Of a stretch of DNA of 64,000 nucleotides, positions 9,812 through 56,592 are shown one piece after another (the stretch's first letter is position 1; each line of letters begins with the position of its first letter). Location of the stretch: NCBI GenBank assembly GCA_003140935.1, contig PLLJ01000045.1:2767-66766 (forward strand), given 5' to 3'. The position numbers and the translations under genes are program-made. The notes beneath the pieces are model-generated. The model saw only the letters and a list, made by a program, of their open reading frames with translations, was not told the DNA's origin and did not search any database. The stretch comes from Candidatus Omnitrophota bacterium. Its GTDB lineage: Bacteria > Omnitrophota > Omnitrophia > Omnitrophales > Aquincolibacteriaceae.

Positions 9812-10695
9812 TTAACGACCCCCAGTTTTTTGAGGACTTCCGCGAGCTTCTTCGCGTTCTCGGGTCTCATCGCGCAAAGCGGCATCCGGAATTCGGGCTT
9901 GATCTTTCCCATCATCCCGAGCGCCGTTTTCACCGGGATCGGATTCGTCTCCATAAAGACGGCTTTGGAGACCGGATAAAGCATCTTATGGATCGAACGC
10001 GCTTCTTCCATGTTCCCGTTCAATGCCGCGGTCACCAGATTCTTCACAAGTCTCGGTGCGATGTTCGCGACGACCGAGATCACGCCGCGCGCGCCGATTG
10101 CGATCAGAGGGAAATTCAGGGAATCCTCCCCTGAAAGGACCGGCAGGTCGCAAAGCTGCATGATCTGATCGGCCTGGTCCATGCTGCCGCTCGCTTCTTT
10201 GATCGCGACGATCGTATCGATCTTGGAAAGACGCGCCACGGTCTCGGGAGCGATGGAGACCCCCGTGCGTCCCGGCACATTGTAAAGCACGATAGGTATA
10301 TCGACGCGACGGGCGAGATATTGATAGTGACGGAAAAGGCCTTCCTGTGTCGGCTTGTTATAATACGGGGTCACGACTAGCACGCCGTCCGCATTGATCC
10401 TTTTGGCATGCTGGATCAGACCGAGCGCCTCGGTCGTATTGTTCGAGCCGCAACCGCAGATCACGGGGATCCGGTGATGGATATACTCGACCACGAACGA
10501 CATGGCCGCGCGATGTTCGATATGCGACATCGTGGCGGATTCGCCCGTCGTGCCGCACGGAACGATCACGTCCGTGCCTTCCTTGAGGTGAAAATCCAAG
10601 AGCCCCTTGAGCGCTTTTTCGTCCACCTTCCCGTTACGGAACGGTGTCACAAGCGCGACCATCGAACCTTCGAAAACAGATCTCTTTTTTTTCAT
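9808..10695 (-). CDS. dapA: 4-hydroxy-tetrahydrodipicolinate synthase
   Basis: PCGTTGESATMSHIEH and the YNVPGRTG motif. 295 aa. Confidence 0.9.
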   Translation of the reverse strand: MKKKRSVFEGSMVALVTPFRNGKVDEKALKGLLDFHLKEGTDVIVPCGTTGESATMSHIEHRAAMSFVVEYIHHRIPVICGCGSNNTTEALGLIQHAKRINADGVLVVTPYYNKPTQEGLFRHYQYLARRVDIPIVLYNVPGRTGVSIAPETVARLSKIDTIVAIKEASGSMDQADQIMQLCDLPVLSGEDSLNFPLIAIGARGVISVVANIAPRLVKNLVTAALNGNMEEARSIHKMLYPVSKAVFMETNPIPVKTALGMMGKIKPEFRMPLCAMRPENAKKLAEVLKKLGVVK

Positions 10696-14587: not shown

Positions 14588-14722
14588 ATTGGGACTGTCC
14601 TAATACTTATCAATTTCCGCACAACGGAAATTGGGGCTGTCCAAGTCAGCCATCCTGGAAATAAAACGAAAGACTTGGACTGCACTGAACTTCCATTAGG
14701 TTTTATGGGTTGTTCAGTGCGG
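14588..14722. repeat. composite intergenic hairpin element (modules C-A-D)
   Basis: Module C is caatttccg-cacaa-cggaaattg, flanked by ggactgtcc/ggggctgtcc. Module A is gtccaagtc-(A-rich 24 nt)-gacttggac. Module D is gcactgaac-(21 nt)-gttcagtgc. A near-identical copy lies at 39686-39814. Confidence 0.85.
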
Positions 14723-18097: not shown

Positions 18098-18211
18098 GCC
18101 TGCCTCCTTAGGCCTTAGTTCATAGCTAGAAACGATTGGCTATCAGCTACCGGGTATCTTTCTACGGCGTCAGGTTTACCGGTTTACAGGAATCGATGCC
18201 TGGCTTTTCAT

Positions 18212-24700: not shown

Positions 24701-24916
24701 TTATGCCCGCTGCGGGTTCATCAACTTAAACCAGGGACATCGCTTGACGCAAAATAGCAAACCCCTGCCCTTCGCTTTGGAACAACCCGCTTTGTCCAGA
24801 GAAGACGCGACTTCCCAGCATTTCCTGCCCGTTGACGGAAAGGCGGCGCATTGGATCTTGGTGGCTCTCGGGCAATCCCAGAATTCCCAGCAGTTCTGCG
24901 GTCTCGGATCCGTCAT
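24701..24916 (-). CDS. small Cys-rich two-CW-domain protein
   Basis: NCWEFWDCP ... GRKCWEV ... C..C.WFK. This matches the pattern I recall for 'two-CW domain' proteins. 71 aa. Confidence 0.55.
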   Translation of the reverse strand: MTDPRPQNCWEFWDCPRATKIQCAAFPSTGRKCWEVASSLDKAGCSKAKGRGLLFCVKRCPWFKLMNPQRA

Positions 24917-25010
24917 AGACCTTTTTCCCCTTTCTGCTTTTTGTCGAACGGTCCCATTTTCTCTTTCTTATTTTGACCGCCTTCGCGGAACCCCTTTATC
25001 AAATAGTAAC

Positions 25011-25042
25011 ACTATTTTACGAAGATAGGACGAAGAACAAAG
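25011..25042 (-). promoter_or_regulatory. 32-bp promoter-like motif, diverged copy (upstream of the two-CW gene)
   Basis: The minus strand reads CTTTGTTCTTCGTCCTATCTTCGTAAAATAGT. It matches 24 of 32 positions of the copies at 31888 and 32255 and carries a TAAAAT -10-like hexamer. Confidence 0.4.
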
Positions 25043-25083
25043 CGTTTTGAGGATGAGTCGAACGGTGCTGTCCAACTTTGGGC

Positions 25084-25147
25084 TCTATATCCTATCCGCC
25101 AAATTTCGCGGACGGATCCGTCCACGCCGTGTGGCGGATAGGGTATA
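25084..25147. repeat. module-B hairpin repeat
   Basis: ctatatcctatccgcca pairs with tggcggatagggtatag (17-bp stem, 1 mismatch). The stem encloses the palindrome ggacggatccgtcc. Confidence 0.8.
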
Positions 25148-25169
25148 GGGTTTGTCACTCATTCCGGGG

Positions 25170-25305: not shown

Positions 25306-25307
25306 AA

Positions 25308-25370
25308 CCCCGAGTCCCGAATCCCGAGTCCCTGTATTATTGTGTCTCGCGTCCCGAGTTGCGAGTCCCC
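25308..25370. repeat. GAGTC/GGGAC heptad motif cluster (family E)
   Basis: cccgagtcccgaatcccgagtccctgtattattgtgtctcgcgtcccgagttgcgagtccccc, immediately 3' of pcm. The core gagtccctgtattattgtgtc recurs at 29448. Confidence 0.7.
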
Positions 25371-28054: not shown

Positions 28055-28182
28055 GCACTGAACAACCCATAAGACCTATTGGAAGTTTAGTGCGCCATGA
28101 TTCTCTTTTTTTAAAAAATAAACGGGTAATCATGACAGTCCAAGTCGCCATTCAAGAAAAAAATGAAGACTTGGGCGGCACT
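28055..28182. repeat. composite intergenic hairpin element (modules D-inverted, F, A)
   Basis: gcactgaac-(21)-gtttagtgc. Then catgatt-(25, A/T-rich)-aatcatg. Then gtccaagtc-(A-rich 21)-gacttgggc. Confidence 0.8.
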
Positions 28183-28202: not shown

Positions 28203-28240
28203 AATGAGAGCCAGTGCCGAGTTACGAGTCCCGAGTCCCC
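28203..28240. repeat. family E motif (aatgagagccag + GAGTC heptads)
   Basis: aatgagagccagtgccgagttacgagtcccgagtcccc, directly 3' of the radical SAM gene stop. Confidence 0.65.
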
Positions 28241-29413: not shown

Positions 29414-29480
29414 CCTACGAGTCCCTAGTCCCGTCTTTATTTATCCCGAGTCCCTGTATTATTGTGTCCCGTGTCCCAAG
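29414..29480. repeat. family E motif cluster
   Basis: cctacgagtccctagtcccgtctttatttatcccgagtccctgtattattgtgtcccgtgtcccaag. On the minus strand this gives six GGGAC units. Confidence 0.7.
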
Positions 29481-30702: not shown

Positions 30703-31011
30703 TTTTTTTATCCGGTCAATCGGCTCATCTATCTTTTTTCTGACTTTTTTCCTCTCCTCAACCAGGACAATGCCATGATTGATTTAAAAATAAAAAAGGC
30801 GCTACCGCTGTTATGAAGTTATCGACAATAGTAACGCCTCTATTGATAAAAACTCCCCCGCCTGCGATTAAACCGAATGTCGCTTTTGAGGGTAAATGCG
30901 GCATCGCATCCAAGGAATGGCTATTTCTGACGCGGATCGGACAAGATTGTCAAAATCTTGCCGAAGCCGCCCTGGTTTTACATTATTCAAATCAATCGGA
31001 AAACTAGGGCT

Positions 31012-31052
31012 GCACTAATTTTCTTTTAAAAAAATTTATCGAAAATCAGTGC
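31012..31052. repeat. module-G hairpin
   Basis: gcactaatttt-(A/T loop)-aaaatcagtgc. The same module occurs at 52681-52721. Confidence 0.6.
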
Positions 31053-31148
31053 GTACCAAAGCATTGGGCTTTGATGCATTCAACCGGTCCCCGGGGTGCC
31101 AGCTTGTCCGCCTCTGGCGGAGTACTGTTCTATTCCGCTTCCGGTTGC

Positions 31149-31215
31149 CATATATCATATCCGCCAAATTTCACGGACGAATCCGTCCACGCTGTGTGGC
31201 GGATATGATATACGG
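31149..31215. repeat. module-B hairpin repeat
   Basis: tatatcatatccgcca pairs perfectly with tggcggatatgatata (16 bp). The stem encloses ggacgaatccgtcc. Confidence 0.8.
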
Positions 31216-31297
31216 TCTGTCACCGCCCCGCGTCTTTTGTCCTCGTGCCCCGAGCTACGAGTCCCGAGTCCCGTCTTCATTTGTCCCGATTCCCCGT

Positions 31298-31819
31298 TTA
31301 TATCTTTTTCGATTCCTGTTCCAGGCGCTTCATTTCTTCCAGGCTCGAGTTCTCTTCCCCGGCAATCTGTTGTCGGTTGTCCCCATCTTTATTCGAGTCC
31401 CGAGGAGCGAGTCCCGAGTCCCGCGGTGTTTCGTTCGAGTCCCGAGCTACGAGTCCCGAGTCCCGTGGTTTTTCGTCCGTCGTCTTGGCCTCAGGGGAAG
31501 AAAGTCCTTTTTTTGAGTCCTGTTCCAGGCGCTTCATTTCTTCCAGACTCGGGTTCTTTTCCCCGGTAGTCTGTGGTCGGTTGTCCCCATCTTTATTCGA
31601 GTCTCGAGCTACGAGTCCCGAGTCCCTGTCTTTATTCGAGTCCCGAGGAGCGAGTCCCGAGTCCCGCGGCGTTTCGTCAGCCGCAGCTTTATTCGCTCGC
31701 CGGGCCGCGATCGCCGTCCTCGCCGCCCGGATGCCAAAGATCGCGTGCGCCGGAGGCGCTCCGAGAAGAAACGTCCCCGTCACCAGTCCCGCCATCACGA
31801 TTTTAAAAGTTTTCGACAT
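31298..31819 (-). CDS. membrane-anchored/secreted repeat protein built on GGGACTC heptads
   Basis: ATG 31819 is preceded by GGGGAGGTTGGAG. The anchor is MSKTFKIVMAGLVTGTFLLGAPPAHA. Two repeats of about 68 aa follow (PRDSGL[AV][AP]RDSNKDGDNR...SLEEMKRLEQ[DE]SKK). Coding status is uncertain because the DNA is the intergenic repeat motif. Confidence 0.45.
   Translation of the reverse strand: MSKTFKIVMAGLVTGTFLLGAPPAHAIFGIRAARTAIAARRANKAAADETPRDSGLAPRDSNKDRDSGLVARDSNKDGDNRPQTTGEKNPSLEEMKRLEQDSKKGLSSPEAKTTDEKPRDSGLVARDSNETPRDSGLAPRDSNKDGDNRQQIAGEENSSLEEMKRLEQESKKI
31314..31677. repeat. tandem direct repeat, period about 204 bp, 2 copies
   Basis: The unit tcctgttccaggcgcttcatttcttccag...gtccccatctttattcgagtc...gagtcccgagtcccgcgg begins at 31314 and again at 31518. 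The second copy has an extra insert of about 38 bp. Confidence 0.85.
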
Positions 31820-31887
31820 CTCCAACCTCCCCATGCTGCGTTGTCCACTTAGGAATTTTATTCAACATGCCCTGAGATTAGAACGGC

Positions 31888-31919
31888 ACTATTCTACGAA
31901 GGAACGGTGAAGAATAAAG
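31888..31919 (-). promoter_or_regulatory. 32-bp promoter-like motif (upstream of the repeat-protein gene)
   Basis: The minus strand reads CTTTATTCTTCACCGTTCCTTCGTAGAATAGT. It contains a TAGAAT -10-like hexamer about 70 nt upstream of ATG 31819. Confidence 0.45.
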
Positions 31920-31929
31920 TACCATTCCT

Positions 31930-32250
31930 CTATTGTTCTTCCCTCGACCCATTGATCTCATCGCCCCGCGAATATCGTGCGGTGTCTCCGGCCTTATAAT
32001 ATTTTGTGACGGAAATGACGAATTCTAAAAAGCCCCGCGCTTTGAGCTCATCCTTGATCTTCTCCAAAAGCTCCTGTCCCGGATCTTTCTGGCTCCATAT
32101 AAAAAAAGAGAGCGTATCTTTCCGGACGGTCAAATGGTCCACATTCTCATGGGCCCTTAAGATCTGTTCGAGAGGGTGCACATCCTCCAGACGCAGAAAA
32201 CGCGACGGGAATTTGATCTCAATGATCGTTAAAGTGTTTAAAAGTTTCAT
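31930..32250 (-). CDS. hypothetical protein (106 aa)
   Basis: I start it at MKLLNTLTIIEIKF (ATG 32250). No motif recognised. The TAGAAT of the 32-bp motif lies 7 nt upstream of the ATG, so the mRNA may be leaderless. Confidence 0.4.
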   Translation of the reverse strand: MKLLNTLTIIEIKFPSRFLRLEDVHPLEQILRAHENVDHLTVRKDTLSFFIWSQKDPGQELLEKIKDELKARGFLEFVISVTKYYKAGDTARYSRGDEINGSREEQ

Positions 32251-32254
32251 GCGT

Positions 32255-32286
32255 ACTATTCTACGAAGGAACGGCGAAGAATAAAG
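32255..32286 (-). promoter_or_regulatory. 32-bp promoter-like motif (immediately upstream of 31930-32250)
   Basis: The minus strand reads CTTTATTCTTCGCCGTTCCTTCGTAGAATAGT. It matches 31 of 32 positions of the copy at 31888. Confidence 0.45.
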
Positions 32287-32358
32287 CCTTTTGCGGATTA
32301 AAACAACAAACGGAGAAATCAAACAATGGAGTCATCCCTTCCCTCTTTTGGATGGCTG

Positions 32359-32970
32359 TCATCTTTTTTTCAGAGTAGCTTTGTCTTTATAGCTTGTACA
32401 TCGCACATAAAAATCAAATTGAATTAAAAAAAGAAGTATTGCGAACATAATTGTTAGAAATAAATTTTTCGTTAAACTTAATAATCCTATCGCTAATAAA
32501 GTCCCATTTAAAAAAGCCATTAAAAATACGAGGATCGGGAAATGATGCAAAAAACCTTCAAAATGTTTTGGCTCCTCATCGGTTATCGGCAACTTCAAGT
32601 ATTTTGTCAGATCGTCTTCCAGACTATTATCTGTGAAATACTTGCGAGTAAGGTTTGCGCTTTTTGCATAAAAAATCATCCGCATCCTAAGATTCATTAT
32701 GATCGCAAGGAAAATAACTCCTATAACAACTAAAAAAAGAACTATATAGACAAATGGCACTGGCAGATTATACAAGTCCCAAGTGATGGAGTTTATTTCT
32801 CTTGTTAATGCTAAGAATAAAGAAAGCGGAATCGCAATAACACCAAAATAATATTTAAATAATTGATAAAGAATTGTATATAAATGCTCGTAAAGCTCAT
32901 GCAAAAGCTTGTGCTCCTGCATCATAAATTCAAATTCTTGCTGAGCAGATAGTTGAGGATGTTTTTCCAT
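32359..32970 (-). CDS. 4-TM membrane protein, last gene of the AT-rich island
   Basis: 203 aa. Cytoplasmic N-terminus, then hydrophobic helices FGVIAIPLSLFLAL, VPFVYIVLFLVVIGVIFLAIIM, FPILVFLMAFLNGTLLAIGLLSL and LFLTIMFAILLFLIQF. AT-rich codon usage matches the three upstream genes. Confidence 0.6.
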   Translation of the reverse strand: MEKHPQLSAQQEFEFMMQEHKLLHELYEHLYTILYQLFKYYFGVIAIPLSLFLALTREINSITWDLYNLPVPFVYIVLFLVVIGVIFLAIIMNLRMRMIFYAKSANLTRKYFTDNSLEDDLTKYLKLPITDEEPKHFEGFLHHFPILVFLMAFLNGTLLAIGLLSLTKNLFLTIMFAILLFLIQFDFYVRCTSYKDKATLKKR

Positions 32971-32990
32971 TGCTATCTTTAATGGGGTCG

Positions 32991-34070
32991 TTATTTCCTT
33001 CCCAATCTTTCTAATTCCCGGTTGTATGATTCAAAGCCATGTCTTATGACTATGTTTTGCTCTCGTACTTTTCTTCGAAAAAGTTTAACTTGCCAATCCA
33101 TCCAATTCTGATGAATAAAATAATCCGCAGAAGTCTGCGCGACTCTTGGGTTATAGTTATCGAACGTTTGATTTAAAGGCCGATAACGGCAATCAGCGGT
33201 TTGAACTCCCCATTTTTTACATTCTTTAATTTTTTGCAACATTTCATAAAAATCATGTTCGAAGTTAGATATCATGAACACGTACATCTCTTTTGCTCTG
33301 TATCCGGCTTCGATCAGCATCTCGATTTGTTTTTTTATCATTTGGCGCTGGGAATATCCATGATCCCAAGCGATCCTCGGGTTAAGAAAATGTGCCTGCT
33401 TCAACAATTTCGCCAATTCTGGCGTCAAAAGCCTCCCGTCAATTCCGCACTGACTTTCAGAATAGACCGCTCGCCCATTGCACTTCGCATTCTTCAATTC
33501 ATCCAAAATGTCTTTTATATATGGATTAGCTAAAAGATTATTATCGTAAAAAATTACCCTATTGCTACAAATCTCATCTTTGATACTTTTTTTGGGAATA
33601 AATTCGGGCTCGATTTTCCAAGTTCCGCAGAATTTACATTTTCGCACACATCCTCTTGAAGAATGAACGATCTGATAATCGACATCAACTAAACTGTAAT
33701 CTGGCGCAGATGCTTCCGCCTTTGGATCCACGCCAACAAAAACTTTATCGCATTCAGATTGTTTACAGTGGTCTGGCATGAGTGATGCATAAATGCCACC
33801 GACAGTTATATGGGCCCTGGGATAATTCTTTTTGTAGAATTTCACACTATCCCACACGTATTTGGACCAATAGGTAAATAGAGAGGTAATCTTAATTTCA
33901 TCCGGACAAAACTCTCCAACCAGCTTGTCCCCTCGCACAAGTCGGACTTTATCACCATTTGCTTTGTGGTAACTGGCTAGCTTGAGTAAGCCAACAGGCA
34001 AAAAATCTCGGTGATTTTTGCTTTTTGCTGGAATCGGAAAACCTGGTTCCACTAATAATATTTTAGACAT
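32991..34070 (-). CDS. radical SAM enzyme with N-terminal B12-binding-like domain (class-B-like), AT-rich island
   Basis: SSRGCVRKCKFCGTW contains CxxxCxxC. The N-terminus ILLVEPGFP...FLPVGLLKLASYHKANGDKVRLVRGD follows the Rossmann-like pattern of B12-binding radical SAM proteins. 359 aa. Its ATG overlaps the HD gene stop (ATGTCTAA). Confidence 0.8.
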   Translation of the reverse strand: MSKILLVEPGFPIPAKSKNHRDFLPVGLLKLASYHKANGDKVRLVRGDKLVGEFCPDEIKITSLFTYWSKYVWDSVKFYKKNYPRAHITVGGIYASLMPDHCKQSECDKVFVGVDPKAEASAPDYSLVDVDYQIVHSSRGCVRKCKFCGTWKIEPEFIPKKSIKDEICSNRVIFYDNNLLANPYIKDILDELKNAKCNGRAVYSESQCGIDGRLLTPELAKLLKQAHFLNPRIAWDHGYSQRQMIKKQIEMLIEAGYRAKEMYVFMISNFEHDFYEMLQKIKECKKWGVQTADCRYRPLNQTFDNYNPRVAQTSADYFIHQNWMDWQVKLFRRKVREQNIVIRHGFESYNRELERLGRK

Positions 34071-35583
34071 TTTTATTTAACAAGGTTTCTGGTAATTTCA
34101 ATTTAATGCCATTAAATTTTATATTATTCATAACATCTTTGTACTCGGGGAGTTTTCGAGCTAATTGCTCAGGATTAGCCCATCGGACTTTAACTTCAGC
34201 GTAATTATCTTCAAAACGGAAACCATCAAAAATGGCAAATTCCGCCGTTTCTTCGAAAGAACCGTTTCTTTTCCAATCATGTATGCTATCTAAAAAAATT
34301 AATAATACGGCGAAAGGGAAACGAGAAATATTAATCGGGAAGACTTCATGCTTTCTGAGTTCTTTCCAGATTCTGCTGTCATGTAGCGCAATAGAAGTAA
34401 CCGCTGGTATAACATGGGTAACAATTAACGGCCTATTGGGACGGCTGGTCACGACTTTTGATTCGCGTAAAACTCTCACAAGAAATTGAAAACATCCTGT
34501 TACTCCATGCGATCTATGTTTTATCAAATGTTCTCGTAGTATGTCCTTGATACTAGAATCCTCATCTTCTGACATTTCGGGCGTCCAATTATTAAGGATA
34601 CGTTCGGAACAACAATGTCGAATGAAGGATTGTAATTGTATCGCAGCCTGCAAATAATCACTTTTATCAGCGATCTTTTCCAAACCAATTAGTTCTATAT
34701 CCTCATTGTACCCGTACATTTCGCCAATTAAGTTGCCTGCTTTTTGCGAAGGGTAACCAATATCATGGAATATAGAAGTAATTAACCAGATGTATTCGAT
34801 GGAAAAATCTTTTTCCCGAGGAAAAACATTTTTATAATATTTTTGAAATTCCGCATAGTATTTATCGATTATTACGCATCCCATTAACATAACTTGAAAA
34901 GAATGCAAATAATGCTCACGCGTGCCCTTCAATAAGGGCTCATAATATTTCAGCCTCAAGTAAGGTTCCGAAGAATAATGAAATCTTTTATTATCAAAGA
35001 TTTTCTTTATCGTCAAATCAACTAATTCGTATTCCTCCTCTGAGATATTTTTTGTTTTTCTTAATCGTGAATATTTCGATACAAAATCCTTTAGGATTTG
35101 GCGGTATGAAATATTGTCCAAATCGCCAACGTACGATAAAAGCTTATTTGGAACATGTCCATGCTCAGAAGCCGCCTTCTTTTTTATTAGTTGTTTATAT
35201 TTTTTTCCACTAATTGCTTTGGCTTTAATATCAAGAAGTACGGAAAGCGAAGAATTGCTTAACTGAATTAGCCCAAATCCATTATTGAAACATTCAGAAA
35301 ATATCTGATCATATTCATATTCCGGCGGAATATAATAATAAAATTCAAAATTTTTAATTTGTTTTTTTGCTTTGATGATTTCTTTAGCGCCATTCGCTGG
35401 AAAAGCATTGCTTGTATTTATATCAATTGAAATTAATTTGGACTTATAGCGGTAAAGAAGATCTGGGCTCCACGCAATACCTCTTAAAATCCGATCTCCA
35501 GCCTTTTGGGAAAGTCTTCGCCAGTTGTATTTTTTCACTAAAATTTTATTGAGTTTATCTAGAAAAATTTCTTTTTTTGACAT
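34063..35583 (-). CDS. HD-domain phosphohydrolase with uncharacterised N-terminal domain of about 230 aa, AT-rich island
   Basis: Metal-ligand series H (EHYLHSF), HD (SIFHDIGYP), H (HRSHGVTG) and D (ALHDS / LDSIHDW). 506 aa. Confidence 0.7.
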   Translation of the reverse strand: MSKKEIFLDKLNKILVKKYNWRRLSQKAGDRILRGIAWSPDLLYRYKSKLISIDINTSNAFPANGAKEIIKAKKQIKNFEFYYYIPPEYEYDQIFSECFNNGFGLIQLSNSSLSVLLDIKAKAISGKKYKQLIKKKAASEHGHVPNKLLSYVGDLDNISYRQILKDFVSKYSRLRKTKNISEEEYELVDLTIKKIFDNKRFHYSSEPYLRLKYYEPLLKGTREHYLHSFQVMLMGCVIIDKYYAEFQKYYKNVFPREKDFSIEYIWLITSIFHDIGYPSQKAGNLIGEMYGYNEDIELIGLEKIADKSDYLQAAIQLQSFIRHCCSERILNNWTPEMSEDEDSSIKDILREHLIKHRSHGVTGCFQFLVRVLRESKVVTSRPNRPLIVTHVIPAVTSIALHDSRIWKELRKHEVFPINISRFPFAVLLIFLDSIHDWKRNGSFEETAEFAIFDGFRFEDNYAEVKVRWANPEQLARKLPEYKDVMNNIKFNGIKLKLPETLLNKNV

Positions 35584-35593
35584 ATATTTGGAA

Positions 35594-36592
35594 TTATTTG
35601 TTATTTATCATTTGGTCAATGGTGTCTCGAAGTTTTTTTAAAGAAACCAAGATTCCTTCCTTTCTTTTTTTATCAGTTTCCTTCTTTAAATCAAACTCAG
35701 ATAGCTGTGAATTTAATTTATTAATATTTTTAATTAATGAACGGCTTGTTGTTTTGCTGGTCAAGGTGGGTATTTGTACTTTTTTAGTTAAGTCGTTTTT
35801 CAAGTCTTCGATTGTATACTCGATGTTTTCAATAAATCTTTTTGCTGAAGCAGCAAAAATTTCGATTTTGTCCAACTTCTTGCAAGTCATGATGGCATCG
35901 GGTATCCAAAAGAATGCGCGAGTTGTCCCAAGAAGACCTTTTTCTGCTTTCGCTATAAGCTTCCCTCTAATTTCTTCCCTCGAGTGATCCTTAAAAGTTT
36001 GGGGTATGTTTTTTTCTAACTGTTCAACAAAATTTTGTTCTATCTGCACAAGGTAACTGTCATCCAGCTTATTCTCCATAACTTTTTCTTGCGTTTCTTT
36101 ATTAAACCTCAAAAGCCGCAATCTATCTTCGACCTTTTTTCCGTCCATTTTGGTTATCTTTGCTATTTCGCCAATTAGGTCTTGATCGGTTATCGATTTG
36201 TTTTTTCTTTTTATCAAATCAACATAGAATTTTAGCGCTTGGGCTTGCGCCATCGGCTCCCATTGTTCTCTCAGCATGTGAATTTGAAACATTCGTTTTA
36301 AGCCTTCCCCTTGGGCTTTGGCTTTTTTAATGGCCAACACATGGATGGGCACGCCTTCTCGTTTAACTTTTTGAGCAGCTTTAAGCCGTCTTTCGCCATC
36401 GAGCAAAATATATTTTTTGCCTTTTTTGCTATCGTTTTTAAAAACGATCAAAGGCACCATGACTCCAAATTGCCGAATGGATTCCTCTAGTGCTATGAAA
36501 TCCTTATCCTCATAATCCTGGCCTCTGGGATTATCTGGATTGAAAGCTATATCATTAGGAGAAACATACCTGATCTGCTCGTTTTTATTCAT
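35594..36592 (-). CDS. ParB/Srx N-terminal-domain protein, first gene of the AT-rich island
   Basis: VSPNDIAFNPDNPR ... VPLIVF ... YILLDGERRLKAAQ (the ParB box II GERR arginine motif), followed by a helical, K/E-rich C-terminal half. ATG 36592 is preceded by GGAGG at a 6-nt spacing. Confidence 0.75.
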   Translation of the reverse strand: MNKNEQIRYVSPNDIAFNPDNPRGQDYEDKDFIALEESIRQFGVMVPLIVFKNDSKKGKKYILLDGERRLKAAQKVKREGVPIHVLAIKKAKAQGEGLKRMFQIHMLREQWEPMAQAQALKFYVDLIKRKNKSITDQDLIGEIAKITKMDGKKVEDRLRLLRFNKETQEKVMENKLDDSYLVQIEQNFVEQLEKNIPQTFKDHSREEIRGKLIAKAEKGLLGTTRAFFWIPDAIMTCKKLDKIEIFAASAKRFIENIEYTIEDLKNDLTKKVQIPTLTSKTTSRSLIKNINKLNSQLSEFDLKKETDKKRKEGILVSLKKLRDTIDQMINNK

Positions 36593-36761
36593 TCTATACC
36601 TCCATTTATTCCATAAATCATTTAAGATTTTTTATCTTTGTAGACGGAATCGATCCTACTTTCTTTCGTAAGTCAACGGAACACCGTCTGGGGAAAGACG
36701 TTAACTCCCCAATCTTATAGACGCACTCTTCGTTACAGGCAAGGGGAAAAAAGAAACCGCC

Positions 36762-37211
36762 TCAAAGATATAAGGCGCAGACGAAGGCGAGGGCGCCGGC
36801 GACGAGGTTGGCCAGGGTGCCGATGAGCCAGCGCTGGAGGTTATAGGCGGCGATCCGGTTCCTCGCGCTCCAATAGTACATCGGGTCGAGGCCTTCGATA
36901 TGCTCCGGCGTTTTGACGATCAACGCCCACGCCACCCATTTGGAAACGAGCTTGAACGCGAGCCACCCGACGATGATCCTGGCGGAATGCGTGGTGAACG
37001 CGATATAGAACAGGACCACTTCGAGAAGCCCGAGGACTTTGCCGAAGACCGGGCTTACCTGGCCGATGAGGAACGCCTTGGCCAGCTTCTCGTCCACGCA
37101 GTGGTAGTCTTCGCGCTTTCTCAGGAGCCTGAAGAGCCCGCGGATCGCGAACGACAGGAGCACGGCGACGGACAAACCCACCACAAAATGTTTCAGCGCC
37201 AGAAGCTGCAT
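36762..37211 (-). CDS. membrane protein, unknown function
   Basis: 149 aa, 4 hydrophobic helices. GC-rich like the backbone. The overlapping alternative-frame ORF 36841-37362 is rejected. Confidence 0.55.
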   Translation of the reverse strand: MQLLALKHFVVGLSVAVLLSFAIRGLFRLLRKREDYHCVDEKLAKAFLIGQVSPVFGKVLGLLEVVLFYIAFTTHSARIIVGWLAFKLVSKWVAWALIVKTPEHIEGLDPMYYWSARNRIAAYNLQRWLIGTLANLVAGALAFVCALYL

Positions 37212-37251
37212 GTGAATCCCCCCTTTTCTTTAAAAAGTTTTTCCGTTTTGG

Positions 37252-37429
37252 ACTAGTACTGTTCTCCATTTGATTTTCCGCCACAATTCTTCGGACGGAT
37301 CCGTCCTTTGGCGGATAGGGGTTAACAGCACTTGTTCTCAAAAAAAACTTAAAGGTTAACAAGTGCTGTCCAAGTCGCCCTTAATAAAATAAAAACGAAG
37401 ACTTGGGCCGTACTGTGTACCGCATACCC
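37252..37429. repeat. composite intergenic element (module B, 11-bp-stem hairpin, module A)
   Basis: ccgccacaattcttcggacggatccgtcctttggcgg. Then cagcacttgtt-(21)-aacaagtgctg. Then gtccaagtc-(23)-gacttgggc. Both termini match those of 52667-52845 in inverted orientation. Confidence 0.85.
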
Positions 37430-37452
37430 TTAATTTCAAATGTGATGCGGTG

Positions 37453-37926
37453 CTAGAGACCTTGCTGCACGGGCGAGCTTGAGCCTCCGCTGCCCAGCAT
37501 AAAAGTATACTCCGTCGGTGACTCTGCGGAGACATGGACCGGCGTCTCTTTCGAAGCATAGCCCGTAGCACTCAGCGTAAGCAGGACCTGGAAACCGGAC
37601 TGCGGGAAAGGGCTTTTTCCGTCGAACGGGACCTGGCTCATTTCGCCGTCCTTGGTCATTCCGCTGAGCGTGAACCCCATGAAATCTTTCACGGGAAAGA
37701 ACGCGATCCCTTCCCGGTTAACCGCCGCCGTTCTCGTCACGTTAGAGGCCGCTAGCGTATCTCTCATTTCGATCTGTCCCGCGGAAGGCACGACGTTCCC
37801 CGACTCTTCACGCACGATGACCTTGAGCGAGGGCGCTGCCTCCTCAGCCTTCAAAGGCAGGGTCACGCCCCAAAAAACCAGGATCGCCAGTATCCATCCC
37901 GTTCTTAAGGTCCTCAGGTTTCTCAT
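37453..37926 (-). CDS. secreted protein, unknown function
   Basis: I start it at MRNLRTLRTGWILAILVFWGVTLPLKA (ATG 37926). Beta-rich composition. Confidence 0.5.
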   Translation of the reverse strand: MRNLRTLRTGWILAILVFWGVTLPLKAEEAAPSLKVIVREESGNVVPSAGQIEMRDTLAASNVTRTAAVNREGIAFFPVKDFMGFTLSGMTKDGEMSQVPFDGKSPFPQSGFQVLLTLSATGYASKETPVHVSAESPTEYTFMLGSGGSSSPVQQGL

Positions 37927-39685: not shown

Positions 39686-39814
39686 AGACTGTCCTAATAC
39701 TTATCAATTTCCGCGCAACGGAAATTGGGGCTGCCCAAGTCAGCCATTCTGGAAATGAAACAAAAGACTTGGACTGCACTAAACTTCATTTAAGCTTTAT
39801 GGGTTGTTCAGTGC
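39686..39814. repeat. composite intergenic hairpin element (modules C-A-D), second copy
   Basis: Aligns over about 130 bp with 14588-14722 with only scattered substitutions. Confidence 0.85.
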
Positions 39815-42328: not shown

Positions 42329-42385
42329 AAAACCCTCCTTGATTGTTTTGAACCGCCCACCGCCCTTTTGACCCCGCGGAACAGG

Positions 42386-43660
42386 TTAAGCCCGTTCGCC
42401 GCGGATGAGATCCTGATAGGTCTCGCGTTTGCGGACGACCTTGAAGGTGCTGCCCTTGACCATGACTTCGCAGGCGCGGGGACGGGAATTGTAATTGGAG
42501 GCCATGGCAAAACCGTAGGCGCCCGCCGTCATGATCGCGAGGGGGTCGCCGGAGTGCATTTCCAGGAGTTCGCGGTTCTTCGCGAAAAAATCCCCGCTTT
42601 CGCAGATCGGACCCACCACGTCATAGACCCACGCTTGCGCTTTTTCATTTTTCACGACAGGCCAGATCTGGTGGAACGCGTTGTAGAAGGCGGGACGGAT
42701 AAAATCGTTCATCCCGGCGTCCACGATCACGAATTTCTTCATGTCGGTCTCTTTGACGTAGATCACCCGTGTCGCGAGGATGCCGCTATTGGCCGCAATA
42801 AAACGGCCGGGCTCGAAGATGAGCCGGAACTTTCTTTTCTTGAAGAGCGGGAGGATCTTCCGTGCGAACTCCTCCGCGGTCTGGGGATTTTCGTCGCTGT
42901 AGACCGCTCCCAGGCCGCCGCCCAGATTCAGGAACTTGATCTTGATCCCGCTTTCTTCGAGCTCGTCGATGAATTCCAGGATCTTCTGGAACGCCTCGAC
43001 GAAGGGGTCGCCGGTCTCGATCTGGGAACCGATGTGCACGTGGATCCCCGAGACCTGGGCGTGGGTGAAGCGCTTCACGTCCTGGAAGACCTCGCGGGCC
43101 TTTTCGAAATCGATGCCGAACTTGTTCTCGGCTTTGCCGGTCGTGATGTAATCGTGCGTGTGCGGGTCCACGTTGGGATTGATCCGGAGCGAGACGTTCA
43201 CTTTCTTGCGCATCTTCCTGGCGATCGCGTCGATCTGTTCGAGCTCGGGCACGGACTCCACGTTAAAGAGCAGGATCCGGACCTTGATCGCGGCGCGGAT
43301 CTCCTCGTCGGTCTTCCCCACGCCGGCGTAGACGATGTTCTTCCCCTGGCATTTCACTTTCCGGGCCCGGAAAAGCTCGCCCCCCGAGACGATGTCGAGG
43401 CCCGCGCCTTTTTTGACGAGCGCGCGCAGCACCGCCAGGTTCGAGTTCGCTTTGACGGAATAGCAGAGGAGCGGCTTCGCGGAACGGAACGCCCGCTGGA
43501 GTTTCGCGAGGTGGTCGGTGAAGGTTTTGTGGCTGTAGATGTAGGCCGGCGTCCCGGTTTTTTTCAGGATCTTGCTGACGCGGACCTTGTCGCAGTAAAG
43601 CTCGCCCTGCTTGTAATAAAAATCGTGCATCTTCTCTTCGTGAAAATCGGTCGGGGGCAT
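42386..43660 (-). CDS. lysA: diaminopimelate decarboxylase
   Basis: TPAYIYS, LCYSVKANSN (PLP lysine), GGGLG and GPICESGD motifs. 424 aa. Confidence 0.9.
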   Translation of the reverse strand: MPPTDFHEEKMHDFYYKQGELYCDKVRVSKILKKTGTPAYIYSHKTFTDHLAKLQRAFRSAKPLLCYSVKANSNLAVLRALVKKGAGLDIVSGGELFRARKVKCQGKNIVYAGVGKTDEEIRAAIKVRILLFNVESVPELEQIDAIARKMRKKVNVSLRINPNVDPHTHDYITTGKAENKFGIDFEKAREVFQDVKRFTHAQVSGIHVHIGSQIETGDPFVEAFQKILEFIDELEESGIKIKFLNLGGGLGAVYSDENPQTAEEFARKILPLFKKRKFRLIFEPGRFIAANSGILATRVIYVKETDMKKFVIVDAGMNDFIRPAFYNAFHQIWPVVKNEKAQAWVYDVVGPICESGDFFAKNRELLEMHSGDPLAIMTAGAYGFAMASNYNSRPRACEVMVKGSTFKVVRKRETYQDLIRGERA

Positions 43661-43661
43661 A

Positions 43662-45044
43662 TCAGCTCCTCAGGGTTTTCTTCCACTCCGCGATCGCCTG
43701 TTTCACGCGCGCGGGGTGCGTGCTTCCGATCGTCTTTTTCCCTCGTACGGATTCTTTTGCGTCAAAAAGGTCGTGGATGTCCGCGCCGAACTTGGGCGAG
43801 AACTTCCGCCATTCCTGGACGGACCACTCGCGGAGCCGCTTCTCGGATTCGATGGCTTGCCGGACGGTCCTGCCCACGAGCACGTGCGCCTCGCTGAACG
43901 GGACTTTTTTCCGGACGAGATATTCCAGGATGTCGGTCGCAAAAAGGCTGTCGTCGTCCAGGGACTTTAAAAGGGCCTTCTTGTGCCAGCTCGCGGAACC
44001 CACGGCCAGGGCCAGGAGCTCCAGAGCGGTCGCGGTCTTTTTCACGGCGTCGAAGACGCCCGGCTTGTCTTCCTGAAGATCGCGGTTATAGGAAAGCGGC
44101 AGGCCTTTTTGCACGGTCAGGATCGCCTGGAGATAACCGAAGATCACGCCGGCCCTGCCGCGCACGAGCTCGAACACGTCGGGGTTTTTCTTTTGCGGCA
44201 TGAGGCTTGATCCGGTCGCGAACGCGTCATCGAGTTCCACGTAGCCGAACGCCTCGGAGTTCCAGAGAATGAAATCCTCCGAAAGCCGCGAGAGATGCGC
44301 CCACAAAATGGAAAGCACGCTCAGGAATTCGGCGAGGGACCCCCGGTCGCTCACCGCGGCGATGCTGTTGGCGGCAATGCCGTCAAACCCGAGCTCTTTC
44401 GCGAGGAATTTCTGGTCGATCGGAAGCGCGGACCCCGCGAGCGCGGCGGAACCGAGCGGCAGGATGTTCACGCGCTTGGCCGCGTCCTGAAGCCTCGACT
44501 TGTCCTCTTCGAGCATTTCGACATACGCCAGCAAATGATGCGCGAGCAGGATGGGCTGCGCCTTCCGGAGGTGCGTCATGCCGGGAATGATCATCTCTCC
44601 CGCTTTCTCGCCAGCGGTGATCAGACTCTTCTGGAGTTTCCGGATGCCGTCTTCGATCGCGACGATCTTCTCCCGGAGGTAAATGCGGGTCGAGGTGATG
44701 ACGAGATCGTTCCGGCTGCGCCCGGTGTGGATCTTTTGGGCCACCGCACCCGCCTTTTTCTCGAGTTCCATCTGGATGAGCGTGTGGATGTCCTCATACC
44801 GGTCGGCATAAACCGCGAGGTCCCGGCCTTTCAGGGACCGGATCACCGACTTGAGGCCCCGAAGGATCGCCTTGGATTCCGCGCCCGTGATAAGACCGAC
44901 CCGGGCGAGCATTTTCGCGTAGGCTTCATTGACGCGGACCTCGGCGTCGAAAAGTTCTTTGTCCGTTTCCAGCGAATAACTGAAGCACTTGAGCGCCGGG
45001 TGCATGTCCTTTTTAAATCGTCCGCCCCACATTTGTTTTGTCAT
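43662..45044 (-). CDS. argH: argininosuccinate lyase
   Basis: MWGGRFKK start, the GSSLMPQKKNPD signature and TGRSRNDLV. Confidence 0.92.
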   Translation of the reverse strand: MTKQMWGGRFKKDMHPALKCFSYSLETDKELFDAEVRVNEAYAKMLARVGLITGAESKAILRGLKSVIRSLKGRDLAVYADRYEDIHTLIQMELEKKAGAVAQKIHTGRSRNDLVITSTRIYLREKIVAIEDGIRKLQKSLITAGEKAGEMIIPGMTHLRKAQPILLAHHLLAYVEMLEEDKSRLQDAAKRVNILPLGSAALAGSALPIDQKFLAKELGFDGIAANSIAAVSDRGSLAEFLSVLSILWAHLSRLSEDFILWNSEAFGYVELDDAFATGSSLMPQKKNPDVFELVRGRAGVIFGYLQAILTVQKGLPLSYNRDLQEDKPGVFDAVKKTATALELLALAVGSASWHKKALLKSLDDDSLFATDILEYLVRKKVPFSEAHVLVGRTVRQAIESEKRLREWSVQEWRKFSPKFGADIHDLFDAKESVRGKKTIGSTHPARVKQAIAEWKKTLRS

Positions 45045-45075
45045 GAGATCACCTTTTTTCCCGCCACGTACCGCG

Positions 45076-46260
45076 CTAGTTTTTATACATGCCTTCGTAC
45101 GGAAGTCCCCAGAGTTTCATAAAACCGACCGCGGCCTTCCGGTCAAAAATATCGCCCTTCGAATACGTCGCGAGCTTTTCTTGATAGAGGGCATAGTTCG
45201 ATTCCCGGCCGACGCACACCGCGTGGCCCCGGTCCAATTTGATGCGGACCTTGCCCGTCACGCGCGCCTGGTTGGACGCGAAAAAGGCGTCCAGCGACCG
45301 CTTGAGGGGTGAGAACCAAAGCCCGAAATACACGAGCTCCGCGTATTTCTCGGAAAGGACCCTCTTATAATGAAGGAACTCCCGGTCCATGACGAAGCCT
45401 TCGAGCTCTTCGTGGGCCTTCAAGAGCACGTCCGCGGCCGGCGCTTCATAGACCTCGCGGCTCTTGATCCCGACGAGCCGGTTCTCGATCATATCGAACC
45501 GTCCGACCCCGTACCGGCCCGCGATCACGTTCAAATGCTCGATCAGGTCGACGAGCGGCATTTTCTTTCCGTTCAATTTTACCGGAACGCCTTTTTCGAA
45601 AACGATCTCGATATAACGCGGTTTCTTCGGCGTCTTGGAGGGGGCGCAGGTCATCACGTACGCGTCCTCCGGCGGCTCGACCATCGGGTCTTCTAAGATC
45701 CCCGCCTCGATCGCGATCCCCCAGATGTTCTTGTCGATGGAATAAGGGCTTTTCTTGGTCACGTCGATCGGGATCCCGCTTTTTTGGGCGTACTCGATCT
45801 CCTCTTCGCGCGTCTTGAATTCCCAGTCGCGCAAAGGCGCAATGATCTTGAGGCCCGGGTCGAGCGTCCGTACGCCCACTTCGAGCCGCACCTGATCGTT
45901 GCCTTTGCCCGTGCAGCCGTGCGCCACGCATTCCGCGCCTTCTTTCTGAGCGACGTCCACCAGATGTTTCGCGATGAGCGGACGGCCGAGGGCGGTGGCG
46001 AGCGGGTACTTGCCCTCGTAACGCGCGTGCGCCCAGAGCGCCGGCATAATGTAATCCCTGGCGAACTCCGCCTTCAAGTCCACGATCAAGGTCTTGATCG
46101 CTCCCGCGGCCTTGGCCCGGCGGACGAGCGGGGCCTTCTCTTTGACTTCGCCGATAAAGGCGCAAAAACAGATCACGTCCAATCCGTGAGTTTCCCCGAG
46201 CCATTTCACGGCGCAGGAAGTGTCCAGTCCCCCGGAATAAGCCAAGACAACTTTTTTCAT
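45076..46260 (-). CDS. argG: argininosuccinate synthase
   Basis: KVVLAYSGGLDTS and GCTGKGNDQVR motifs. Confidence 0.92.
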   Translation of the reverse strand: MKKVVLAYSGGLDTSCAVKWLGETHGLDVICFCAFIGEVKEKAPLVRRAKAAGAIKTLIVDLKAEFARDYIMPALWAHARYEGKYPLATALGRPLIAKHLVDVAQKEGAECVAHGCTGKGNDQVRLEVGVRTLDPGLKIIAPLRDWEFKTREEEIEYAQKSGIPIDVTKKSPYSIDKNIWGIAIEAGILEDPMVEPPEDAYVMTCAPSKTPKKPRYIEIVFEKGVPVKLNGKKMPLVDLIEHLNVIAGRYGVGRFDMIENRLVGIKSREVYEAPAADVLLKAHEELEGFVMDREFLHYKRVLSEKYAELVYFGLWFSPLKRSLDAFFASNQARVTGKVRIKLDRGHAVCVGRESNYALYQEKLATYSKGDIFDRKAAVGFMKLWGLPYEGMYKN

Positions 46261-47192
46261 TGGATCGCTCCTTGGTTAAAAAGATAAAGCAAAATGGCTT
46301 TCTGAATGTGGAGCCGGTTCTCGGCTTCGTCGAAGACGACGCAATGCTTGCTTTCCATCACGTCGTTGGTGATCTCCTCGCCCCGGTGCGCCGGCAGGCA
46401 GTGCATCACGAGCGCGTCTTTTTTCGCGTGCTTCAAGAGTTCCTTATTGATCTGCATGCCCTTGAAATCCTTGAGCTTTTTCTGGCGCAGGGCCTCTTCG
46501 CCCATGCTCACCCACACATCGGTGTAGACCGCGTCCGCGTCTTTGACGGCTTGGGCGGGGTCCGCGAACCCTTCGATCACGGCGCCCGTTTTTTTCGCGA
46601 TCTGCCTCGCGAGCGCGAGGAGCTTGGGCTTGGGCTGATATTTTTTGGGCGTCGCGTACCGGATCTTCGCGCCCAGTTTCGCGGCGACCAGCATCAGGGA
46701 ATGCAGGACGTTATTGCCGTCCCCCACGAACGCGAGCACCGGGTCTTTTTCCGCCGGGATCTTTTCATAAAGGGTCATGTAGTCCGCGAGCGCCTGGCAC
46801 GGGTGTTCGAGGTCGCTCAAGCCGTTAATGACGGGCTTCTCGAAATAATCCTGGAACTCGGTGATGGTCCAATGCGAAAAGGTCCGCATCACGACCCCCG
46901 AAAGATAACGGGAGAGCACGCGCGCCACGTCCCGCACCTCTTCCCGGATCCCGAGCTTGATGTCTTCAGGCCCGAGATAGATGACGCCGCCGCCCATGGA
47001 ATAGATGCCGGCCTGGAAAGAGACCCAGGTCCTGGTCGAGGGCTTCTCGAAAATGAAACCGAAGATGTGGCCTTCGAGCGCGTCGCGGACCTCCTGCGGC
47101 CGCGCCTTCACTTTGGCCGCGAGCTCCATGAGCTTCCGTATCTCTTCGGTGCTGAGGTCGTTGATCGAGATCAGTGATTGGAACATGCGCAA
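46257..47192 (-). CDS. argF: ornithine carbamoyltransferase
   Basis: FEKPSTRTWVSF, HPCQALAD and HCLPAHRGEE motifs. Confidence 0.9.
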   Translation of the reverse strand: MRMFQSLISINDLSTEEIRKLMELAAKVKARPQEVRDALEGHIFGFIFEKPSTRTWVSFQAGIYSMGGGVIYLGPEDIKLGIREEVRDVARVLSRYLSGVVMRTFSHWTITEFQDYFEKPVINGLSDLEHPCQALADYMTLYEKIPAEKDPVLAFVGDGNNVLHSLMLVAAKLGAKIRYATPKKYQPKPKLLALARQIAKKTGAVIEGFADPAQAVKDADAVYTDVWVSMGEEALRQKKLKDFKGMQINKELLKHAKKDALVMHCLPAHRGEEITNDVMESKHCVVFDEAENRLHIQKAILLYLFNQGAIQ

Positions 47193-51572: not shown

Positions 51573-51601
51573 ATTATAGAAATGGCTCTATCCTTTGTCA
51601 A
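51573..51601 (-). promoter_or_regulatory. consensus sigma70-type promoter of the arg-lysA block
   Basis: The minus strand reads TTGACA-aaggatagagccatttc(17 nt)-TATAAT. It lies about 45 nt upstream of the argC ATG, and AAGGAG lies between them. Confidence 0.6.
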
Positions 51602-51614
51602 TTTAAGAAGTTAC

Positions 51615-51697
51615 GCCATGACCCTCTTTGATCAAAAGAACGGGAGGCCATGACAGCCCAAGTCACCCTCATGAAAAAGAAATAAAGGCTTGGGCGC
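51615..51697. repeat. intergenic hairpin modules F and A
   Basis: ccatgaccctc...gggaggccatg aligns with 28096-28134. gcccaagtc-(23, A-rich)-ggcttgggc follows. Confidence 0.7.
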
Positions 51698-51775
51698 AAA
51701 ATGACCATTGGGACCGTCTTTTTCGATGATATGCTCTATCCCCTATTCCCAGAACCACTTACGTGATTTTCTCCA

Positions 51776-52666: not shown

Positions 52667-52845
52667 GGGGTATGCGGTACAGCACTTGATTTTCATCCAA
52701 AAAATGATAGGAAATCAGTGCAGTCCAAGTCACCATCCATGTGAAGAAATAAAGACTTGGGCAGTACTGTTAACCCCTATCCGCCGAAGGACGGATCCGT
52801 CCGAAGAATTGTGGCGGAAAATCAAATGGAGAACAGTGCTAGCCA
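52667..52845. repeat. composite intergenic element (module G, module A, module B inverted)
   Basis: The 52768-52845 arm is nearly identical to the reverse complement of 37252-37325. The left end ggggtatgcggtac is the reverse complement of 37416-37429. Confidence 0.85.
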
Positions 52846-56563: not shown

Positions 56564-56592
56564 AGTATAACAAAAACCCCTTGGGGTGTCAA
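56564..56592 (-). promoter_or_regulatory. near-consensus sigma70-type promoter of rplM-rpsI
   Basis: The minus strand reads TTGACA-ccccaaggggtttttgt(17 nt)-TATACT. It would give a leader of about 80 nt containing the hairpin agtcg...cgact. Confidence 0.55.

Follow-up and report, generated by a model that had tools for sequence, protein, structure and literature searches.

Putative mobile promoters (PMPs) are highly similar non-coding stretches of 50–100 nt that lie directly upstream of non-homologous genes, both inside a single genome and among related species (Matus-Garcia, Nijveen and van Passel, 2012, PMC3488235; PMC3575422); they are recognized where upstream regions align over 50 nt or more with no less than 80% identity while the flanking coding sequences are non-homologous (PMC3488235). 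Here we describe an element of comparable layout in a 64,000-nt stretch of Candidatus Omnitrophota bacterium (assembly GCA_003140935.1, contig PLLJ01000045.1), hereafter the window, where an initial annotation of the sequence had noticed a 32-bp promoter-like motif ahead of three small minus-strand genes. Three copies lie in the window (A, B and C) and three more in the related loci L001, L013 and L025. With a probability of roughly 0.55, we read the 32-nt repeat as the core of a cis-regulatory module that is specific to the clade and acts as a transferable promoter, and its placement suggests a modest example of promoter reuse, in which a small group of uncultured Omnitrophota sets the same element before unrelated genes. 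Between genomes the likeness to PMPs is close: copy B aligns to the L001 copy over 55–58 nt (left flank and core) at 93–94.5% and to the L013 copy over 54 nt at 88.9%, the L025 and L001 copies align over 50 nt at 88%, and both the downstream and the upstream coding sequences are non-homologous among copies. By contrast, the pairs within the window fall below the length threshold (44 nt at 81.8% for B and C, 32 nt for A and B). Furthermore, PMPs are defined by similarity alone, whereas this element adds a bipartite selection pattern and gain and loss at orthologous genes, and no mobilising mechanism is evident for it. Judged by these alignments, the PMP class is the closest described phenomenon, and the element appears to be a new family of a known phenomenon in a phylum without experimental promoter data. 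A literature search returned nothing on Omnitrophota promoters. To our knowledge the Omnitrophota are uncultured, and nothing is known of their transcription control.

A pattern search of the window with a degenerate form of the 32-mer gave exactly two matches, both on the minus strand (copies A and B, Table 1), which agree at 31 of 32 positions, as the initial annotation had stated, and differ solely by A or G at position 12; no match arose in 100 dinucleotide-preserving shuffles. The annotation had put copy C at 24 of 32 positions, which is slightly too low: a mismatch scan counted 26/32 to B (six mismatches) and 25/32 to A, and a match of at least 26/32 is expected by chance about 5e-6 times anywhere in the window. 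No fourth copy was found in the window at up to 12 mismatches, by blastn-short or by a profile search to E=10. The species of the window recurs across many metagenome assemblies, and the motif copies of eight such loci (L002–L009) are identical to those of the window and therefore carry no within-species information. The three further copies bring the total to six independent ones over four genomes or assemblies, that of L013 standing immediately behind the gene orthologous to the radical-SAM DNA-repair gene of the window. A profile built from the six copies, whose shared sequence can be summarized as T[AC]ATCC[GT]CAAAANGCTTTRTTCTTCR-N6-CTTCGTARAATAGT, recovered only the same six from 234.5 kb searched on both strands, with nothing weaker to E=10. 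Loci L016–L024, about 70 kb from more distant relatives whose radical SAM protein is 80–90% identical, contained zero copies, as did the 18 kb of the same genome that flank the window. A first pattern scan of metagenomes gave zero matches and a second gave six, of which that in L013 is genuine and five (L010–L012, L014 and L015) arose by chance, while two scans of 2.9 million viral contigs gave no match to the element. The pattern used for the genome collection demanded a T in the spacer, so that copies like that of L025 would be missed, and the sampled sequence comprises ~124 kb of three element-bearing genomes plus 2.1 kb of L013.

Table 1. Coordinates of the element, the genes associated with it and other features; positions refer to the window unless a locus is named.
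Feature	Position	Strand	Remarks
Copy B, full element	32253–32310	-	58 nt at 93% to L001 1580–1637; profile 59.1 bits, E=6e-17
Copy B, 32-mer	32255–32286	-	
Copy B, left extension		-	TTTGTTGTTTTA
Copy B, block 1, 5' part	32287–32300	-	TAATCCGCAAAAGG
Copy B, block 1, 3' part	32275–32286	-	CTTTATTCTTCG
Copy B, spacer	32269–32274	-	CCGTTC
Copy B, block 2	32255–32268	-	CTTCGTAGAATAGT
Copy B, -10-like TAGAAT	32258–32263	-	7 nt to ATG 32250
Copy A, truncated element	31885–31927	-	core (32-mer) 31888–31919; profile 44.1 bits
Copy A, -10-like TAGAAT	31891–31896	-	
Copy C, full element, second subtype	25009–25056	-	TCATCCTCAAAACG + CTTTGTTCTTCG + TCCTAT + CTTCGTAAAATAGT; profile 52.5 bits, E=7.5e-15
Copy C, 32-mer	25011–25042	-	
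Copy C, -10-like TAAAAT	25014–25019	-	
Copy in L001 (metagenome-assembled genome (MAG) JBDRCT01, contig 37)			91 nt before Mut7-C RNase gene
Copy in L013 (Joint Genome Institute (JGI) contig)			69 nt before gene for 103-aa tail-anchored protein
Copy in L025 (MAG JAZDFE01)			82 nt before PCMT gene
106-aa gene	31930–32250	-	small uncharacterised family; ATG 7 nt after TAGAAT; no Shine-Dalgarno site
Segment between cores A and B, putative insertion	31920–32254	-	335 bp; 46% GC vs 53.5% for the window
Secreted repeat-protein gene, downstream of copy A	31298–31834	-	likely start ATG 31819 after GGGAGG; signal peptide; PRDSGLAPRDSNKD repeats
Two-CW domain gene, downstream of copy C	24701–24916	-	71 aa; NF045718, weak, E=0.0024
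Canonical sigma-70 promoter	51573–51601	-	TTGACA-N17-TATAAT
Canonical sigma-70 promoter	56564–56592	-	TTGACA-N17-TATACT; before rplM-rpsI
recJ	62152–63837		TAGAAT 8 nt before ATG (63835–63851, minus strand); no Shine-Dalgarno site
AT-rich island	32359–36592		35.6% GC vs 53.5% for the window
Block missing from L001	38060–42385		4.3 kb
DUF1016_N + SNase nuclease gene	38208–39560		matches PADLOC candidate defence family PDC-S02
REP-like palindrome	25086–25158; 31151–31223; 37277–37316		core also 52789–52802; L025 9584–9666
CCAAGTC...GACTTGG hairpin element	28113–28182; 37343–37414; 51631–51701; 52698–52768		parts 14658–14686, 39752–39780; L001 172–308; L025 9777–9823, 15198–15285
GGGACTC runs	25306–25369; 28213–28239; 29415–29477; 31246–31297		also inside 31298–31834
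TAGCCAAT...TCTAGCTAT hairpin	18122–18142	-	L025 ~9940–9975; L029 ~150–175

Aligned to one another, the six copies resolve into two blocks and a spacer. Block 1 reads T[AC]ATCC[GT]CAAAAnGCTTTATTCTTCG, that is T[AC]ATCC[GT]CAAAAnG followed by CTTT[AG]TTCTTC[GA], and block 2 reads CTTCGTA[GA]AATAGT and includes the -10-like TAGAAT; the spacer is always exactly 6 nt and essentially random in sequence (CCGTTC, CCGTTC, TCCTAT, CCGTAA, CTTTGG and CCCCGG). Among the five full copies the mean pairwise difference is 0.14 in the left 14 nt, 0.03 in the core 5' block (12 nt), 0.62 in the spacer (6 nt), 0.03 in block 2 (14 nt) and 0.70 in the right flank (11 nt). Since the spacer is saturated within otherwise invariant blocks, the copies are probably old and both blocks as well as their spacing would be under selection; the pattern suggests that selection acts on two sequence blocks whose distance is fixed, and not that copy-and-paste was recent. 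The exception is the A/B pair, which shares one spacer sequence and by this mark is a recent duplicate. Copies B, L001 and L013 have a further 25–45 nt in common on the left (…CACATCACTTGATTCCTTCGTTGTTTTA…), and C and L025 form a second subtype. Copy A matches the profile at model positions 7–49 only; it lacks the 14 upstream conserved bases of block 1, its ATCCnCAAAA part among them, and its right flank GCCGTTCTAA is similar to the right flanks of the L001 and L013 copies. The 32-bp motif that had been taken as the unit thus gives way to a predicted functional unit of ~50 nt (~100 nt in one subtype), of which copy A would be a truncated duplicate.

The -10-like hexamer occupies the same place in every copy, as TAGAAT in five and TAAAAT in copy C, each matching TATAAT at five of six positions, so that the G-to-A change in C keeps the fit to the -10 consensus. 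Around the spacer, two CTTCG pentamers stand 11 nt apart start to start (CTTCG-N6-CTTCG) in all six copies; the TTCNTTC direct half-sites of the initial annotation are more exactly described as these pentamers. No -35 box near TTGACA accompanies the hexamer, the candidates being CTTTAT (1/6, at 17 nt), TTTATT (3/6, at 16 nt) and GCTTTA (1/6, at 18 nt), and a consensus promoter scan does not list the site. The earlier proposal of a promoter fused to an operator is thus consistent with the two invariant blocks at a fixed distance, the invariant -10-like hexamer, the constant orientation and the distance of 4–94 nt from the next gene, but not with a canonical -35. Elsewhere in the window two canonical sigma-70 promoters were found, from which the housekeeping promoter consensus of this species is judged to be canonical, so that a sigma-70-type -10 box should be meaningful in this organism. 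In a comparison by eye, none of the known alternative sigma factor sites fits, namely extracytoplasmic function (ECF; AAC-N16-17-CGT), sigma-54 (GG-N10-GC), sigma-28, sigma-32, sigma-B and sigma-H, nor does the 9-N9-9 CIRCE (controlling inverted repeat of chaperone expression) operator. A coding reading was also set aside: an open reading frame of 24 codons runs from ATG 32336 through copy B to a TAG in the motif, while A, C and L001 have no in-frame start codon.

Activator-dependent sigma-70 promoters, such as those with a PhoB 'pho box' or OmpR-family sites, have direct repeats in place of the -35 box. The element resembles them in having a good -10, no -35 and two short direct repeats of 11-bp period immediately upstream. 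It differs in that its repeats are only 5 nt long (CTTCG), with the proximal one abutting the -10 hexamer and hence closer than in pho boxes, and in that a further 20 conserved bases follow upstream. RNA polymerase with a sigma-70-type factor would take TAGAAT or TAAAAT as the -10 box and start 7–8 nt downstream, and because there is no -35 box, recognition probably needs a sequence-specific protein, which could be an activator or else an alternative sigma factor. Such a protein may contact the invariant upstream block (ATCCnCAAAAnGCTTTATTCTTCG) together with the helically phased CTTCG pentamers 11 bp apart, an arrangement that resembles a response-regulator box standing in for the -35; operators of that kind have direct repeats of 10–11-bp period to which a cognate winged-helix regulator binds.

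Each of the six copies lies between genes and points in the direction of the gene that follows, with gaps of 4, 68, 69, 82, 91 and 94 nt to the start codon and of 10 to 408 nt to the preceding stop codon. The gap of 68 nt belongs to copy A and ends at the Shine-Dalgarno-preceded ATG of the repeat-protein gene, in agreement with the leader of about 70 nt noted earlier, and that of 94 nt separates copy C from ATG 24916. In three large intergenic regions (299–521 nt) the element is always the feature nearest to the start codon, and the joint probability of all gaps being 100 nt or less is 0.014 under uniform placement within these regions. The six downstream genes are unrelated and encode the 106-aa protein, the secreted repeat protein, the two-CW protein, a Mut7-C RNase, a 103-aa tail-anchored membrane protein and PCMT; the upstream genes differ as well, and tblastx detected no similarity between the flanks. 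Co-orientation with both neighbours could also suit an element acting in RNA that affects stability, processing or translation; it would form a hairpin or bind a protein, whether in the 3' end of the preceding transcript or within the 5' leader of the following one. The core does contain an imperfect inverted repeat, TATTCTTCG-N9-CGTAGAATA, that could give a 9-bp stem with a variable loop, and copy A, directly past the stop codon of the 106-aa gene, forms a stronger hairpin (-12.4 kcal/mol) with its own left flank and the spacer. The other five copies, however, fold much like shuffled sequence (z = -0.46 to +0.36 for four, -1.7 for C), the arms show no covariation, the sole changes in them (copy C) breaking a pair, and the window between 24000 and 38000 has no relevant match in Rfam 15 at E up to 1; no tRNA or tmRNA gene lies in the window. 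The hairpin is not followed by a T-run and hence is not a terminator, and beyond the stem, plain sequence continues to be conserved for 14 nt upstream. We regard a role at the RNA level as highly improbable.

Comparison with the sister genomes bears on how the element came to its places. L001 is collinear with the window, its positions 3449–8000 corresponding to window 42385–46830 at 87.5% nucleotide identity and its positions 2754–3256 to window 36735–37236; between the anchors the gene content is wholly different, yet the element is found there in both genomes. At orthologous genes it is present in one genome and missing in another: the two-CW gene has it in the window and not in L026 (2432–2721, where the gene follows a nitroreductase gene), the Mut7-C gene has it in L001 and not in L025 (where the gene abuts a hydrolase gene), and the PCMT gene has it in L025 and not in the window, L026 or L029. 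In these orthologous pairs homology begins 35–60 nt downstream of the element. The element therefore marks synteny breakpoints and is gained and lost independently of the genes. With orthologues of three genes lacking it and homology breaking off so close downstream, it looks like a reshuffled promoter module; the small regulon that had been proposed is not a stable one, and the genes involved are functionally unrelated. The module has been placed before unrelated genes in sister species, always at synteny breakpoints, and on the promoter reading it is a propagated or reused promoter. As the genes that carry it have been cut off from their former upstream neighbours, it plausibly supplies transcription after rearrangement or insertion, and homologous exchange between dispersed copies may itself create breakpoints.

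The same turnover at orthologous genes could be displayed by a selfish or neutral short interspersed repeat without a promoter role, in which the blocks would be the site of a mobilising protein. These genomes are rich in other such repeats, among them a repetitive extragenic palindrome (REP)-like ATCCGCCA...TGGCGGAT palindrome, a CCAAGTC...GACTTGG element and runs of GGGACTC, and the L025 copy is the last part of a mosaic, 400 nt long, whose four other repeat families are all found in the window, too. The inverted repeat in the core is of the kind such elements have, and the 5' part of block 1 (ATCCGCAAAAGG) resembles an arm (ATCCGCCAAAGG) of the REP-like palindrome at 37277. Yet the hairpin is weak (-3.6 to -5.5 kcal/mol) and in four of the six copies no better than in shuffles; C is marginal and breaks the pairing without compensation, and only A is clearly better (z = -1.9), through its own left flank. 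No inverted partner or copy in opposite orientation was found in the 234.5 kb on either strand, the element is nearest to the start codon in every large intergenic region, and the saturated spacer beside invariant blocks speaks for old copies maintained by selection and against a recent spread. REPs, bacterial interspersed mosaic elements (BIMEs), REPINs (REP doublets) and the Correia elements of Neisseria are short interspersed intergenic repeats, the Correia elements being promoter-bearing and REPINs the subject of a review (PMC8049555). The element is like them in being short, intergenic, imperfectly palindromic with a variable centre, adjacent to other repeat families and associated with rearrangement; unlike them, it has a weak and AT-rich stem, occurs in one orientation and never in inverted pairs, and has no terminal inverted repeats. 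REPs and REPINs have a stable imperfect palindrome, mostly occur as inverted pairs and go with a REP-associated tyrosine transposase (RAYT); here the palindrome is weak and inverted pairs are missing from the 234.5 kb, genes for RAYTs not having been searched for. Miniature inverted-repeat transposable elements (MITEs) have terminal inverted repeats and target-site duplications; here no reverse-orientation block lies near any copy and no short direct repeats were found at the edges in L001, L013 and B. An interspersed repeat of this type is possible, though rather unlikely.

The A/B pair can be traced by means of L001, in which a single core lies between the left flank of B and the right flank of A; its positions 1572–1613 align to A over 42 nt at 88%, covering the core and the right flank RCCRTTCTAA. 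Because both flanks surround one core there, the comparison suggests that 335 bp with the 106-aa gene was inserted into one ancestral element and that the 32-bp core was duplicated. The segment between the cores contains only the 106-aa gene, 4 nt before its ATG and 10 nt after its stop codon. Possible routes include unequal exchange, template switching and the Campbell-type integration of a circle with a core on it. Two copies flanking a single gene, as pointed out in the initial annotation, look like the scar of an insertion or duplication and not like regulatory design. In terms of a transferable promoter, the ancestral element before the repeat-protein gene would have been split by the insert, the 106-aa gene would have come to lie behind the TAGAAT of the upstream copy and would probably be expressed as a leaderless mRNA, and expression of the repeat-protein gene may continue to depend on the truncated copy A.

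One small gene enclosed by a sharp-edged direct duplication of 32 bp, with ancestral flanks that can be reconstructed from L001, would also be expected of an att-like site for site-specific recombination, at which the 106-aa gene and one core form a 367-bp cassette, the arms bind a recombinase and the variable centre is the overlap. The arm-spacer-arm anatomy with its variable centre, the location of every copy at a synteny breakpoint and the variable island region nearby are all in line with this. On the other hand, just one gene is flanked on both sides and there is no array, and no recombinase adjoins any copy, the neighbours being ParB_N-like, radical SAM, DoxX, PCMT and Mut7-C genes; an rve integrase 3.7 kb away in L025 looks like an ordinary insertion sequence. 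The arms are 9 bp with one mismatch and 9 bp apart, the conserved sequence is asymmetric, with 14 extra bases on one side and direct CTTCG repeats, the 60-nt element has no GTTRRRY/RYYYAAC attC core sites, and the absence from the viral contigs points the same way. We consider a recombination site of this kind quite unlikely. Integron cassettes are defined by attC sites, the IntI integrase and a cassette array. The likeness here is confined to a small uncharacterised gene that lies in a variable region between direct repeats and starts almost immediately after one of them, whereas attC core sites, an attC-like fold, an array and, among the neighbours scanned, IntI are missing and the element precedes genes rather than following them. 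Very unlikely, too, is a combination of the two functions, in which the element would be both promoter and recombination site of an undescribed gene-capture system and small promoterless genes, such as the 367-bp unit with the 106-aa gene, would integrate at the 32-bp core, integron-like without attC or IntI; the core would then be duplicated on integration and the captured ATG placed directly behind the -10 box for immediate leaderless expression.

Several points weigh against a transferable promoter. The promoter activity of every copy is predicted from sequence, the best -35 candidate matches at only 3/6 positions, and the site is missing from the output of the consensus scan. The 40 conserved positions far exceed what a promoter needs, and another DNA-binding function could explain them equally well. 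Gene direction is nearly uniform at the loci, so that orientation cannot separate 'upstream of X' from 'downstream of Y', and the three copies of the window lie within 7.3 kb of a variable region, which fits a recombination-related element too. Finally, copy number and positional bias rest on ~124 kb of three core genomes. Even so, the element is a well-delimited and strongly constrained candidate promoter/operator in Omnitrophota. It would show, down to the nucleotide, a single regulatory module becoming attached anew to different genes of sister species and a newly inserted gene coming to stand behind it, and would illustrate the way in which genes gain expression signals after horizontal acquisition or rearrangement. 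If it were also a recombination site, it would constitute a new type of gene-capture system, which is unlikely on present evidence.

Leaderless mRNAs have been described in Deinococcus deserti (PMC4007540) and mycobacteria (PMC4633059). Copy B has the corresponding geometry, with TAGAAT ending 7 nt before the ATG of the 106-aa gene, as the initial annotation had observed, and recJ in the window is similar in having a -10 hexamer at 8 nt; neither gene has a Shine-Dalgarno site. The difference is that only one of the six copies is placed in this way, while the other five imply leaders of 60–90 nt with normal Shine-Dalgarno sites. The neighbours of the 106-aa gene carry GGAGG-type Shine-Dalgarno sites, and since this gene has none and lies 7 nt behind a TAGAAT, a leaderless mRNA is plausible. 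The sequence fit of that earlier suggestion therefore held, given the strong sites elsewhere in the genome and the short N-terminus that homologues confirm, and the transcript stands as a candidate only; recJ is a second candidate leaderless mRNA. No close relative of the 106-aa protein turned up in 5.8 billion clustered proteins, whereas a full HMMER scan yielded 26 remote homologues at 27–42% identity, of which 24 are 90–109 aa long and two are much longer and matched over part of their length. The six closest that were inspected share its short N-terminus, and a 130-aa version starting from TTG 32322 and reading through the motif was rejected on that ground. A single-sequence AlphaFold model (mean predicted local distance difference test (pLDDT) score 77) predicts a ferredoxin-like beta-alpha-beta-beta-alpha-beta-beta fold, for which no significant match was found in the PDB. 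Judged by the homologues and the model, the gene is real and its start is ATG 32250.

The repeat protein encoded downstream of copy A is 178 aa long in most assemblies and 92 aa in L002, so that the number of its repeats varies between strains. The heptamer GGGACTC, which in frame encodes its PRDSGLAPRDSNKD units, also forms runs directly past minus-strand stop codons. Beyond copy B, the AT-rich island contains genes for a 203-aa membrane protein, a B12/radical-SAM-like protein, a 506-aa protein with no family match and a ParB_N-domain protein, none of which has a PADLOC match; in the collinear L001 one unrelated 294-aa gene takes its place. The element as att site of the whole island was considered and rejected, as the far end (36600–37500) has neither a copy nor a fragment of it. 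Further along, L001 also lacks a 4.3-kb block, within which the candidate defence nuclease gene is found.

The other repeat families of the window are intergenic as well. The REP-like element is a GC-rich palindrome (ATCCGCCA...GGACGGATCCGTCC...TGGCGGAT) with 87–91% identity between copies and genomes, and one of its copies lies ~45 nt upstream of copy C. Another lies between the repeat-protein and DoxX genes, in a stretch of ~600 nt (30703–31297) that contains no convincing gene; a fourth, degenerate copy of the motif behind this second REP-like element (~31040–31078) was dropped, being unsupported by alignment or profile search. A 40-nt piece of the same region (30932–30972) with TTTTGACAATCT recurs in L025 and L026. 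The CCAAGTC...GACTTGG hairpin element, ~70 nt long, has four to six copies in the window and others in the sister genomes. Finally, the short TAGCCAAT...TCTAGCTAT hairpin is found in the 5' leaders of different genes, in the window that of an RtcB-like gene and in two relatives that of PCMT.

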